From Candidatus Saccharimonadia bacterium (GTDB taxonomy: Bacteria; Patescibacteriota; Saccharimonadia; CAILAD01; BJGX01), in the NCBI GenBank assembly GCA_039738615.1, contig JBCLLP010000001.1, positions 3,573-67,572 of the forward strand: a stretch of 64,000 bases of DNA. The letters are read 5' to 3'. A model generated the notes under the pieces. It had not been told where the DNA came from. It ran no database searches and saw only the letters and a program-made list of their open reading frames with translations. The position numbers and the translations under genes are program-made. Position 1 is the stretch's first letter. Each line of letters begins with the position of its first letter. Below, piece by piece: positions 52,589 to 55,215 of the stretch.

Positions 52589-52645
52589 CTAGTTAACGGG
52601 GCTTGTTGGGTTAGTAATTACACTGACTTACTTTAGGATTACTAG
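52589..52645. repeat. Degenerate copy (about 88% identity) of the 57-bp segment at 55159-55215; flanks the LRR gene
   Basis: Direct alignment of the two stretches: ctagttaacgggg(c/g)tt(g/t)ttgggttagtaattacactgacttactt(t/g)ag(g/a)attactag. The copy preserves a pseudo C-terminus (LVILK-stop on the minus strand) and part of the terminator hairpin. Confidence 0.8.
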
Positions 52646-52663
52646 ATGCCAAAGAGTGGGCTC

Positions 52664-55057
52664 CTAGGTTATTTTGCTAGCTAGTAGCGGGTATAGCATG
52701 CGGAGTTTATTTTTATCGGCGCTGGTAAGGCTCCCGAGGTCGAGGCTGTCACCGATGAAGTTAGGTAGGGCTAGACCCTCGGCGCTGGTGAGGCCCCCGA
52801 GGTCGAGGTCGCCACCGATGGAGTTAGGTAGGGTTAGGCCCTCGGCGCTGGTGAGGCCCCTGAGGTAGAGGTCGCCACCGATGGAGTTAGGTAGGGTTAG
52901 GCCCTCGGCGCTGGTGAGACTGCTGAGATAGAGGTCGCCACCGATGGAGTTAGGTAGGGTTAGGCCCTCGGCGCTGGTGAGGCTCCTGAGGAAGAGGTCG
53001 CCACCGATGATGTTAGGTAGGGTTAGGCCCTCGGCGCTGGTGAGGCTATTGAGGAAGAGGTCGCCAACAATGGAGTTAGGTAGGGTTAGGCCCTCAGCGC
53101 TAGTGAGGCTCCCGAGGTAGAGGCCGCCACCGATGGAGTTAGGTAGGGTTAGACCCTCGACGCTGGTGAGGCCCCCGAGGTAGAGGCCGCCACCGATGGA
53201 GTTAGGTAGGGTTAGACCCTCGACGCTGGTGAGGCTGTTGAGGTAGAGGTCGCCAACAATGGAGTTAGGTAGGGTTAGGCCCTCGGCGCTGGTGAGGCTC
53301 CTGAGGTAGAGGCCGCCACCGATGGAGTTAGGTAGGGTTAGGCCCTCGGCGCTGGTGAGGCTGTCAAGGTCGAGGCTACCACCGATGAAGTTAGGTAGGG
53401 TTAGGCCCTCGGCGCTGGTGAGGCTGTTAAGGTCGAGGCTGTCACCGGTGGAGTTAGGTAGGGTTAGACCCTCGGCGCTGGTGAGGCTGTCAAGGTTGAG
53501 GCCGCCACCGATGGAGTTAGGTAGGGTTAGGCCCTTGGCGCTGGTGAGGGTGTTGAGGTCGAGGTTGCCATGATGGTAGAGTATGCCACCACTTAAGGCC
53601 CCTTCTGTGGTGATGCTTATTTTAGCTTCATCTATATCCAGTATGAGAGACAAATCAGCCTTATCATTTCTATAATCAAGTATCTGCTCTATTCTGAGGT
53701 CTCGCCCATAGCCAAGGCTAAGAATTTTATCATCTATTTCATAAATAAATCTTAGCTCTTCAGGGCTTAGTTTGTAATCGAGGTTACTATAGCTTAAAAA
53801 TTCAGCGGTCATATCATCATACTGGGCACCAAGCTTTACTTCTATCTCAGAAACTAGCTTCATATCCTTAATCGCTTGTTTGTATTCTTCAGCATTAGGA
53901 AATTCTTCACTATCTTCGAGCTTGGTACTCAATACTGGGTCAATATAAGAGTCTAGGTGCTGGCCGTGTTCAATTCCTCTAATCTCAGCTATTTCCCCTT
54001 GCTCCATGCGTATGGCTATCCGTGGTATGTTTGCCTCGCCTGTTTCATCTAGTGAATAATAGACATAAAAATCCCCGCCATCTAGCTGACCTTGGGCTGT
54101 ACTGATAGCACCCGCCGTACACCATTCCAAGACATGGTTATGTAGGCTATCATATAGTGTCTGGGCATCACTACCCTGCTTATAGCAAACCCACTCACCT
54201 CTCGTTTCTTTGAGTCTTTCACGGGACATTGAAGGAGTTTCGGATAGAAATTGGGCATATATTGTAGCAAAGTTTTTATTGCTTAAAAGTGCATTGTATT
54301 TTTCGTCAGTAAGTATAGTCGAGGTATTTGATATTGTTCTGCCACCCTTTGGCAGCCCCTCTTGCTCTAGCCTATGGCTCATAGCAGCGATTGTCTGGGC
54401 AAGTGCCATAGGATTAAGTATCGGGTATGATGCTATGGTAGTTACGTCGCGGGTTGCGAATTTAACTATCGGGGGGCTACCTTCTTTTTCTTCTTTTTTG
54501 ATTTTACCCATTGTAGTAATAGCCATAAAAGCCCAATACCGCGCCCACATAGGGTACCCTGCCGCATCAGCATCCCCGCTAGTTAAATAATCTACCCATC
54601 TATCTAGGCTGGCTTCTTGGGCAGCTATTATCTCATTGATTTTTGCTTGCTTAAACTCTTCATCAGGTGTGATATTACCATGCCCCATCTCCCTGGCTTG
54701 TCGGACTTCAGCTACAAAGGCATAATCTGGCACTTCATCGGGCTTGATAACAAACAGTTTGTGGTAGCTTGCTTTAATGCGTTCTAGCACCCTGGAATGA
54801 GCCTCCTGGAGTTCGGGACTGGCTCCCCTGGCCTGGTGAGTGCGTTGTAATACTTCAAGCCAATTAGATATTCGTAGGGCTGGATTTGTATTTGTCTCTA
54901 AGCCCTCTGCTTTTTCTCTTCTAGCCTGCTCGTACTCTACTGGGTCCGATAACTGAAGTGCAGAGTTATTAGCATGTAATAATCTAGCGCCAGCCAGCTC
55001 CTCCTTGCTAGGGCTAGGGGTGTCTTGTGGGGTTTGATCTGGAAACTGCTCTGGCAT
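52664..55057 (-). CDS. Leucine-rich-repeat protein (BspA-like 21-residue LRRs, 13 copies) with a ~500-aa N-terminal domain of unknown function
   Basis: The C-terminal 13 tandem repeats follow the consensus LTSAEGLTLPNSIGGDLYLxS. There is no obvious signal peptide. The N-terminal domain has no motif I recognise. Confidence 0.65.
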   Translation of the reverse strand: MPEQFPDQTPQDTPSPSKEELAGARLLHANNSALQLSDPVEYEQARREKAEGLETNTNPALRISNWLEVLQRTHQARGASPELQEAHSRVLERIKASYHKLFVIKPDEVPDYAFVAEVRQAREMGHGNITPDEEFKQAKINEIIAAQEASLDRWVDYLTSGDADAAGYPMWARYWAFMAITTMGKIKKEEKEGSPPIVKFATRDVTTIASYPILNPMALAQTIAAMSHRLEQEGLPKGGRTISNTSTILTDEKYNALLSNKNFATIYAQFLSETPSMSRERLKETRGEWVCYKQGSDAQTLYDSLHNHVLEWCTAGAISTAQGQLDGGDFYVYYSLDETGEANIPRIAIRMEQGEIAEIRGIEHGQHLDSYIDPVLSTKLEDSEEFPNAEEYKQAIKDMKLVSEIEVKLGAQYDDMTAEFLSYSNLDYKLSPEELRFIYEIDDKILSLGYGRDLRIEQILDYRNDKADLSLILDIDEAKISITTEGALSGGILYHHGNLDLNTLTSAKGLTLPNSIGGGLNLDSLTSAEGLTLPNSTGDSLDLNSLTSAEGLTLPNFIGGSLDLDSLTSAEGLTLPNSIGGGLYLRSLTSAEGLTLPNSIVGDLYLNSLTSVEGLTLPNSIGGGLYLGGLTSVEGLTLPNSIGGGLYLGSLTSAEGLTLPNSIVGDLFLNSLTSAEGLTLPNIIGGDLFLRSLTSAEGLTLPNSIGGDLYLSSLTSAEGLTLPNSIGGDLYLRGLTSAEGLTLPNSIGGDLDLGGLTSAEGLALPNFIGDSLDLGSLTSADKNKLRMLYPLLASKIT
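52700..53540. repeat. About 13 tandem copies of a 63-bp in-frame coding repeat with very high inter-copy identity
   Basis: Periodicity is visible directly in the DNA (ggccctcggcgctggtgagg... recurring every 63 nt). It corresponds to the 21-aa LRR units. Confidence 0.85.
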
Positions 55058-55158
55058 TTGTTATAACCTTGTTTAAACTATATTACAGTCTTTAATATAG
55101 TTATTATGCTTCTATGCATCATTAGTATACTATGGCATTATGGCTAGTACAAAAACCC

Positions 55159-55215
55159 CTAGTTAACGGGGGTTTTTGGGTTAGTAATTACACTGACTTA
55201 CTTGAGAATTACTAG
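55159..55215. repeat. 57-bp segment covering the 3' end and terminator of gene 55198..55725; master copy of the repeat at 52589-52645
   Basis: It encodes ...QQLVILK-stop on the minus strand, followed by the hairpin AAAAACCCC-tagttaac-GGGGGTTTTT. Confidence 0.8.

Follow-up and report, generated by a model that had tools for sequence, protein, structure and literature searches.

A duplicated gene end brackets a repeat-protein gene at a variable site in Saccharimonadia

How does a gene come to lie between the 3' end of its neighbor and a second, non-coding copy of that same end? The question is posed by a 64-kb stretch of DNA (hereafter the window) from the Candidatus Saccharimonadia bacterium assembly GCA_039738615.1 (contig JBCLLP010000001.1). 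Here the gene for a 797-aa protein with a leucine-rich repeat (LRR) array, referred to as the cassette gene, separates a metallo-β-lactamase (MBL)-fold gene from rpmB, and the last codons of the MBL-fold gene recur beside rpmB. The original prediction, made from the window alone, was of an inserted or recombined cassette. Comparison with related loci upheld this in outline, as the site also exists empty. What did not stand was the picture of one private event: a close relative (locus L005) holds other cargo at the site, the site itself appears to be a multi-allelic hot spot, and the gene belongs to a family spread across the Candidate Phyla Radiation (CPR). Taken as a whole, the locus is best explained, with somewhat better than even confidence, by insertion of the cassette in a one-sided or single-crossover event with homology in the end of the MBL-fold gene.

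The repeated gene end in the window

Local BLAST, shuffling, and fold predictions were run on the window DNA. A repeat search returned one two-copy direct-repeat family, designated copy A (at the MBL-fold gene) and copy B (at rpmB), with 55 of 60 positions identical (92%) at a spacing of 2570 nt; by local BLAST, 53 of 57 positions were identical (E 1e-20). The duplicated segment, first proposed as 57 bp at ~88% identity, was thereby recovered as a 60-nt pair, the identity having been put slightly too low. The 25-nt core of the repeat, GGGTTAGTAATTACACTGACTTACT, occurs exactly twice per 64 kb with up to three mismatches permitted, against an expectation of 0 from 100 shuffles. A common terminator or repetitive extragenic palindromic (REP)-like family was rejected as the source of the repeat, such membership having been named in advance as counting against the prediction: two repeat copies and one hairpin of the type found at copy A (T1) make up the full complement of the 64 kb. 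An exact-pattern scan of viral contigs for the repeat gave no match. Coordinates are collected in Table 1.

Copy A proved to be the true 3' end of the MBL-fold gene (...QQLVILK*), as originally read, since the open reading frame (ORF) overlaps it. Past the stop codon lies a 22-nt spacer, followed by the 5' arm and loop of T1, the other arm of which falls outside the repeat. T1 is a 10-bp perfect hairpin (AAAAACCCCC-GTTAACTA-GGGGTTTTT) with a U-tract and a predicted fold of -15.4 kcal/mol, and is the sole such hairpin in the window. Copy B lies in the 95 nt that separate the cassette gene stop (52664) from the rpmB stop (52568). On the minus strand it reads HLVILK*, and no ORF uses it, in agreement with its initial description as a non-coding pseudo C terminus (LVILK*). 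Two of the differences in its coding part are synonymous, as had been claimed (ATT>ATC and CTC>CTA), but a third, at the edge, is not (CAG>CAT). Copy B carries the ATC codon of 4/4 relative copies and the CTA codon of L001 and of L005 copy A. The hairpin at copy B had been called weakened; the 3' arm of the tight hairpin is indeed missing, but the region forms a longer, imperfect hairpin running into the rpmB stop (-26.9 kcal/mol, z -2.6).

At the other edge of copy B, no clear microhomology was seen at the junction with the cassette 3' end (52649-52663), as judged without a donor sequence for comparison. Two further features of this edge were suggestive only and were set aside. In one, the duplicated unit would reach beyond a 14-nt indel into the last bases of rpmB (copy A, GGGGTTTTTGTACTAGCC; copy B, GGGGGGTTATTTACTGGCG); in the other, GAGCCCAC upstream of copy B would derive from MBL codons 57 nt upstream (55265-55272; p ~0.04).

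The 2.5-kb segment has no inverted repeats that would pair its two ends, and no integrase, transposase, or recombinase gene was found in the cassette or its neighbors (39.5-62.4 kb), the latter being housekeeping genes. Transposition, whether of a transposon, an insertion sequence, or a miniature inverted-repeat transposable element, is excluded because terminal inverted repeats and a transposase are lacking and the duplication measures 60 nt, not 2-14 bp. A self-encoded integrase is likewise argued against.

Table 1. Features of the cassette locus (window coordinates)
Feature	Position	Strand	Description
rpmB (ribosomal protein L28)	52344..52568	+	Pfam Ribosomal_L28, E 2.4e-21; convergent with cassette; right conserved flank
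Native intergenic remainder	52569..52588		CCCCCCAACTCCACTCCCTA on +; rpmB-proximal arm of the presumed original bidirectional hairpin; collinear with L113
Copy B	52589..52648	-	Putatively displaced, non-coding last 6 codons of MBL-fold gene, stop, 3' spacer, hairpin 5' arm and loop
Junction of cassette 3' end and copy B	52649..52663	-	GAGCCCAC (52656-52663, minus strand) immediately after TAG stop of 797-aa gene
797-aa cassette gene	52664..55057	-	N-domain ~aa 1-500 (53528-55057), C-terminal LRR array, short helical tail
Tandem array	52716..53564	-	63-nt unit, 13.5 copies, 89% matches; 21-aa repeat LTSAEGLTLPNSIGGDLYLxS; GC 0.61, GC at third codon positions (GC3) 0.73
Putative cassette promoter	55124..55152	-	-35 TTGTAC (55152-55147, overlaps terminator T-run), 17-nt spacer, -10 TATACT (55129-55124)
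T1 hairpin	55151..55177	-	AAAAACCCCCGTTAACTAGGGGTTTTT; perfect, tight, A/U tracts; probable terminator of MBL-fold gene; fused to cassette promoter; fold prediction
Copy A	55159..55218	-	Functional 3' end of MBL-fold gene: 7 codons and stop, spacer, hairpin 5' arm and loop; repeat search, BLAST
MBL-fold gene (Lactamase_B_3), 175 aa	55198..55725	-	Pfam PF13483, E 6.6e-07; left conserved flank; source of duplicated end

Empty and filled states of the site in related genomes

Relatives were sampled as one genome per GTDB species, together with JGI metagenome contigs, by scanning with an alignment of MBL orthologues; flanking genes were located by tblastn. About 45 related Saccharimonadia loci, given here as L numbers, were compared, all of them metagenome-assembled, and the counts of empty and filled sites are limited to MBL orthologues at an identity of at least 55%. 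An empty site, with rpmB beside the MBL-like gene and a single copy of the segment, had been predicted and was found in ~18 loci (L002-L004, L007, L009-L011, L013, L014, L033, L034, L037, L038, L044, L045, L055, and L113). There 51-111 bp separate the MBL-fold gene from convergent rpmB, with a single gene end and one bidirectional hairpin, different from T1, that overlaps the rpmB stop. More distant relatives (MBL identity 29-38%) are also empty.

The most informative empty site is that of L113 (GCA_039738655.1), a fourth close relative reached through a 90%-identity protein cluster. Its left flank is 91.6% identical to that of the window over 7.2 kb, and its L28 protein is identical. The intergenic sequence ...TTAACCAGTAGGGAATGGGGTTGGGGAGTTATTTGCTGGCG is collinear with window 52569..52588, and L113 can be aligned base for base, from its MBL end through spacer and hairpin to the rpmB end, with copy B and the TAGGGAGTGGAGTTGGGGGGTTATTTACTGGCG that follows it. 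Across the whole site, ...CAGCTAGTAATCCTTAAGTAA-GTGTCATAGCTAACACATAAAACTCCATTAACCAGTAGGGAATGGGGTTGGGGAGTTATTTGCTGGCG of L113 aligns with copy B and the next 33 nt to rpmB, including the 14-nt TAGGGAGTGGAGTT, which is present in the native remainder (52569..52588) and missing from copy A. Because of this collinearity, copy B is read as the probable native gene end with its native intergenic region, and copy A as the version that would have been joined to inserted DNA. An orphaned 3' end of the upstream gene, continuous with native downstream sequence, is what a 3'-end displacement scar should look like, and is what copy B presents when set against L113.

Two departures from the simple empty state may be mentioned. 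In L113, the stretch beyond rpmB (9000-9771) carries no M50 protease gene; by eye it is of markedly higher GC, and unrelated ORFs run through it to the contig end. Either the contig is chimeric or a second variable site lies between rpmB and M50. In L006, a 498-bp non-coding filler separates MBL and rpmB (7990-8486), with a long palindromic stretch (8269-8396) to which Rfam gave no credible match; the filler may have been left behind by a lost cassette, or may itself be a small non-autonomous element.

Filled sites number 10 (the window, L001, L005, L008, L035, L036, and L040-L043). In L008, L042, L043, L035, and L036, the N-terminal ~470 aa of the cassette protein are 61-63% identical to those of the window, and the C-terminal part consists of 27/28-aa helical repeats (GLDHNQIAQQLIEAGxGxAVAxNLDxF). 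The N-domain is 37% identical to that of the window in L040 and 29% in L041, and the contig of L001, a 93% relative, stops within the first codons of a window-like gene; related contigs often break at this locus (L001, L008, L036, and L040-L042). In a neighbor-joining tree built from GatD, MBL, and the 219-aa protein, tips that are near-identical are by turns filled and empty: L008 and L042 are filled, L011 is empty, and L041 is filled with the 29% N-domain. Judged from these sequences, the convergent MBL/rpmB intergenic region behaves as a cassette recombination hot spot in this Saccharimonadia family. In addition, identity among the four closest genomes is ~92-94%, rising to as much as 99% in mosaic blocks, and homologous exchange among co-occurring close lineages is evident, because L005 and L113 share blocks of 97-99% within a ~92% background.

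A separate case is L039, where the MBL-fold gene is followed by an unrelated ORF (1349-1709) in place of rpmB or a repeat-protein gene; either the site can hold other cargo or the locus is rearranged.

The sequence between the MBL-fold gene and the cassette genes was then aligned for eight filled loci (the window and seven relatives, the L001 row starting past the hairpin). Of these, 7/8 (the window and six relatives) have a module in which hairpin and promoter are laid out alike, irrespective of cargo, and TTGnnn-17/18-TAtAaT is in register in 8/8. The T-run of the T1 hairpin overlaps the TTGnnn -35 box, and the TAtAaT -10 box follows 17-18 nt later; a consensus scan of the window gave an alternative promoter at 55166-55137. 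A T1-like hairpin is absent from the post-MBL sequence of L035 and L036. Because the aligned filled loci keep one compact layout after MBL with any cargo, the unit that is gained and lost is terminator-promoter-gene(s), the first two elements being assigned from sequence motifs and predicted folds.

The same duplication around different cargo was observed in L005 (JBCLLN010000013.1), a genome of 93% nt identity to the window. Four genes fill 5.9 kb there, namely a 207-aa and a 420-aa LRR protein flanking an AAA_5 ATPase and a VWA protein; both LRR proteins have a different, short N-domain with the same 21-aa repeats and C-terminal tail as in the window. The L005 MBL end CAACAGCTAGTAATCCTAAAGTAAG (8128-8152) recurs at 13991-14015 (24/25), and its T1 hairpin (8300-8329) recurs at 14032-14061 (30/30), the second set lying after the last cassette gene and before the rpmB stop. 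In both genomes the last cassette gene has a stop that is directly followed by GAGCCCA, and copy B lies a few bases farther on. A relative with the LRR gene and both copies at this site was another case named in advance as counting against an insertion. L005 fits that case in part, having both copies but four-gene cargo of another kind. Since the L005 repeats bracket different cargo in the same way, the duplication is not the private footprint of the 2.5-kb insertion it was at first taken to be. Either it predates the present cassette, its copies having stayed similar through gene conversion, or each integration generates it anew.

Two details of L005 are recorded alongside. Its AAA_5 (MoxR/GvpN-like) ATPase has 604 aa and its VWA-domain protein 613 aa (9073-12740), the two LRR proteins having near-identical N termini (128 nt at 94%); a PADLOC search for defense systems gave no match to the AAA_5/VWA cargo. 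Inside the T1 hairpin of its copy A lies a 127-bp insertion (8173-8299), flanked by a 12-nt direct repeat of a hairpin arm, AAAAAGCCCCAT, and containing a strong hairpin of its own (CATCTGGAAAAGGCC/GGCCTTTTCCAGATG). It amounts to a further, nested duplication, and its boundary falls within that same loop of the T1 hairpin.

Elsewhere the duplication was not seen. L035 and L043, which are filled and assembled at both ends, have no flanking gene-end repeat, their cassette gene ends lying 20-25 nt from rpmB, within the native hairpin. Nor do family members at other loci (L114/L115, L116, and L141-L146), and flanking repeats were accordingly rejected as a general property of the gene family. Because both sets lack repeats, the scar appears specific to the clade of the window and not to the family or to the hot spot generally. 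In a five-way alignment, each genome has derived features common to its copies A and B, namely a GTCA insertion and ACCCAA in the window, and TTAACTTGGGGCTTTTGC and an identical 30-nt hairpin in L005. Orthologous copies of the neutral spacer differ far more between genomes, despite coding flanks of ~93%. Two histories would fit the four genomes: one ancestral displacement followed by gene conversion, which the GAGCCCA junction common to the window and L005 supports, or repeated single-crossover integration.

Routes by which the gene end may have been displaced

The explanation that we prefer is that a module of terminator, promoter, and repeat-protein gene is gained, lost, and exchanged between the MBL-fold gene and rpmB, and that in the lineage of the window it was not installed by a clean double crossover in both flanking genes. 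A one-sided or single-crossover event would instead have used homology in the last codons of the MBL-fold gene, the spacer, and the hairpin, by one of two routes: a linear fragment may have undergone homology-anchored illegitimate recombination, or a circularized one Campbell-type integration. The incoming DNA would have brought copy A, the gene end now in use, with T1, the cassette promoter, and the gene; the resident gene end and its original intergenic hairpin would have been pushed 2.5 kb downstream, to persist as copy B beside rpmB. Co-occurring relatives are the most likely source of the DNA, presumably via natural transformation, and two reports on cultivated Saccharibacteria describe natural competence with homologous recombination (PMC10187176, PMC10633639). 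Once in place, copy A and T1 plausibly end transcription of the MBL-fold gene and carry the -35 box of the cassette promoter, while the copy B region plausibly forms a 3' structure common to the LRR gene and rpmB. Gene conversion could act on the two 60-nt repeats, which would also allow the cassette to be lost precisely.

A close precedent is found in rhs loci and in the type VI secretion system (T6SS) effector-immunity arrays of Vibrio cholerae, where homology-facilitated illegitimate recombination, or "C-terminal displacement", leaves orphaned gene ends; double crossovers leave no orphan, whereas rare one-sided events do (PMC5361080). The same contrast is seen at this site, where loci of the L043 type are scar-free and the window and L005 are scarred. 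As in those systems, the incoming DNA would be anchored in a conserved upstream gene with the resident 3' end orphaned downstream, at a hot spot of variable cargo, without a dedicated recombinase and in naturally transformable organisms. Unlike them, the displaced piece here is ~7 codons and the terminator of a housekeeping-like, non-polymorphic gene, a self-contained gene and promoter make up the cargo in place of a C-terminal domain with an immunity gene, and there is a single orphan and no array. The feature is a recombination scar of a broadly known kind and not a new type of mobile element. Its interest lies in what it documents, namely cassette turnover and a candidate host-interaction protein family in ultra-small episymbionts. 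CPR bacteria (Patescibacteria) have tiny genomes, and little is known of how they gain or exchange genes for dealing with their hosts. The locus offers a clean, sequence-level example of a fixed hot spot with empty, filled, and differently filled states at 6-8% genome divergence, its footprint constraining the route to one that is homology-dependent and free of an element-encoded recombinase.

Several points weigh against this explanation. Copies A and B share lineage-specific features within each genome (the GTCA indel and ACCCAA in the window, the 30-nt hairpin in L005), so that a single old displacement would need later gene conversion; independent events, for their part, would have had to create their two junctions no more than ~5 nt apart and in each case after GAGCCCA. 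Next to ordinary double crossovers, one-sided illegitimate events are rare (PMC5361080). The scar is not a general by-product of filling, because L035 and L043 are filled without a duplication. Finally, every sequence is metagenome-assembled, and the assignment of donor and native copies depends on a handful of nucleotide positions.

An alternative is that the 60-70-bp gene end and terminator act as an attachment site, the cassette excising as a circle between A and B and, after uptake, re-integrating in empty sites, via RecA or a recombinase supplied in trans, with both copies regenerated. We regard this as unlikely, although a number of observations favor it. In two genomes, different cargo is enclosed by duplications of one type, which nearly coincide in their left boundary and both have GAGCCCA just upstream of copy B. 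The greater likeness of A and B within a genome than of orthologous copies between genomes is expected if the copy on an element pairs with the local native copy, and a close relative has an empty site. The 127-bp nested insertion in the L005 T1 hairpin, flanked by the 12-nt hairpin-arm duplicate, and the position of a distant family member between two large serine recombinase genes on an IMG/VR contig point the same way. Against it, the cassette and its vicinity contain no recombinase, filled sites of other clades (L035 and L043) and family members at other loci have no flanking repeats, and the pattern is confined to two genomes. Nor was a circular junction observed, no search for one having been feasible.

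The locus resembles integrase islands and prophages that enter the 3' ends of tRNA, transfer-messenger RNA (tmRNA), or protein genes (attL/attR) in that the target gene remains intact, direct repeats of its 3' end flank the insert, the distal one as a gene end without function, and relatives (L113 and ~17 further loci) have a single-copy empty site. It differs in having no integrase in or near the 2.4-kb (window) or 5.9-kb (L005) insert, in its cargo of one to four genes, and in the absence of repeats from other filled sites of the hot spot. With integron cassettes it shares a cargo of one to a few genes, a ~60-nt hairpin-forming boundary sequence, and variable cargo at a fixed site, but not intI, attI, or Pc; a sigma-70-like promoter is predicted within the cassette itself, the repeat is the end of a neighboring gene and not an attC, and there is no array. 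Should the repeats prove to cause repeated rounds of excision and re-integration, cassettes would have a simple and new way of moving in ultra-small bacteria with natural competence. In its boldest form, which we consider improbable, freshwater Saccharimonadia would possess a recombinase-free (or trans-recombinase) cassette system with the ~60-70-bp MBL end and hairpin as attachment sequence. Cassettes for fast-evolving repeat proteins (LRR or helical-repeat effector candidates, sometimes with the AAA-VWA pair) would loop out, spread by transformation, and re-insert, integron-like without an integron.

A purely local history would dispense with horizontal insertion altogether: an ancestral repeat-protein gene would have resided at the site, a single tandem duplication or replication slippage in the common ancestor of L005 and the window would have copied the MBL end with the intergenic region, deletion would have produced the empty sites, and gene conversion would have maintained the likeness of A and B. 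This too we hold to be improbable. It would suit the conserved terminator-promoter module of several filled clades, which fits an old resident gene, the GAGCCCA junction, which suggests that copy B arose once, and the host-like composition of the N-domain; 60-nt direct repeats would, moreover, yield precise deletions. On the other side, cargo differs radically (one gene versus four) at ~7% genome divergence, the C-terminal tails of the cassettes are ~65-70% identical against flanks of 93%, and N-domains range from 29% to 63% identity among near-identical hosts, a spread that requires replacement from outside. Furthermore, the spacer of the L011 empty site is not derivable from L043 or L008 by simple deletion, and the mosaic flanks show that exchange is ongoing.

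An assembly artefact, whereby the paths of a filled and an empty allele were fused to give a false second gene end, is conceivable in metagenome-assembled sequences with frequent contig breaks at the locus, but is very improbable, because two independent assemblies (the window and L005), unlike in sequence and cargo, show the same architecture, no overlap of k-mer length that could create the junction exists between the cassette 3' end and the MBL end, and the copies differ at 5 positions and have not been collapsed.

The cassette protein family and neighboring features

The 797-aa protein had no match in Pfam, NCBIfam, PHROG, PADLOC, or PDB sequences, nor to LRR profiles of Pfam or NCBIfam at E <= 0.01. 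Its repeat array is nevertheless predicted to fold as a curved solenoid with one short beta-strand ladder per repeat, as expected of an LRR fold, so that the LRR label of the original prediction is supported by predicted fold and not by Pfam profiles. A weak GNAT-like core (WCTAG...GDFYVYY...PRIAIRME...EIRG) was also noted in the protein. As for the surface location given in the original prediction, here kept as putative, the N terminus (MPEQFPDQTPQDTPSPSKEE...) is hydrophilic by eye, with no signal peptide or membrane segment seen and no hydrophobic helix in the structural model; no predictor was run. In contrast to the LRR domains of YopM and IpaH/SlrP and to internalins, the protein has no Pfam LRR match, an unusual repeat motif (LTSAEGLTLPNSIGGDLYL), and no secretion signal by eye. 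It also differs from bacterial short-repeat LRR proteins in its ~500-aa N-domain, which in sister loci carries 27-aa helical repeats.

More than 330 homologues were found at E <= 1e-5, in Saccharibacteria, Falkowbacteria, Uhrbacteria, and Parcubacteria, and relatives of the conserved family core lie on 24 IMG/VR contigs. The description of the gene as a lineage-specific accessory gene therefore holds for its accessory status at this site, but not for lineage specificity, given homologues across CPR phyla and filled sites in several other clades. The same ~470-aa N-domain (61-63% identity) is joined to 27/28-aa helical repeats in place of LRRs in L035 (4341-6461) and L043 (1967-3994), which indicates that C-terminal repeat arrays have probably been swapped at the domain level within the family. 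This large, unannotated, CPR-wide family, with its ~500-aa N-domain and interchangeable arrays, makes a reasonable candidate set for host interaction. Exact-sequence look-ups for the MBL, L28, and 797-aa proteins of the window found none on record.

The comparison of GC and codon usage with the flanking genes, proposed as a check on insertion, did not mark the gene as foreign. The GC3 of the window N-domain (0.39) is like that of neighboring genes, and only the repeat array is GC-rich (0.73), as in relatives; foreign base composition was consequently rejected as evidence of insertion. The GC3 of the array is 0.73 in the window (52716-53564), 0.69 in L005 (13051-13980), and 0.67 in L043 (3351-3994), with N-domains of the same genes at 0.39-0.41, and such GC3-rich arrays, of 21-aa LRR and 27-aa helical repeats alike, occur in genomes whose GC is ~42-44%. 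The enrichment could stem from codon selection or from conversion among repeats that is GC-biased.

A more remote member of the family was noted on L117 (IMGVR_UViG_3300033402_000781, 483-16989). This 679-aa relative, with 37% identity to the N-domain over residues 103-480, adjoins a reverse transcriptase (RVT_1) and lies between two large serine recombinase genes, with an AAA_5 ATPase and a ClpB-like gene nearby. The setting may be that of a mobile element or be retroelement-associated (perhaps of the diversity-generating retroelement type).

The gene order around the cassette is ClpB-like, tRNA-Pro, PaaX-like, 6S RNA, M50 protease, rpmB, the 797-aa gene, MBL-fold, AI-2E transporter, 219-aa protein, GatD-like, MurT, MiaA, and ThrRS, and homologues of the flanking genes are annotated as Candidatus Saccharibacteria, Saccharimonadia, or Patescibacteria. 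A search of 52.5-55.3 kb against Rfam returned zero RNA families. The 6S RNA match (51435-51602, minus strand), in the interval between the PaaX-like and M50 protease genes, scored 48.0 bits, barely over the Rfam gathering score of 46.4. Farther away, ARAGORN called a tmRNA at 29077-29583 on the minus strand, 507 nt long with the tag peptide AKSFVSRISNAFAPKFAPAFA; tmRNAs are usually much shorter. The AI-2E transporter gene (55760-56803), between the 219-aa and MBL-fold genes, is present in some clades and absent in L002-L004, L007, L012, L014, and L033-L036, and its presence or absence constitutes a second polymorphism one gene from the hot spot.

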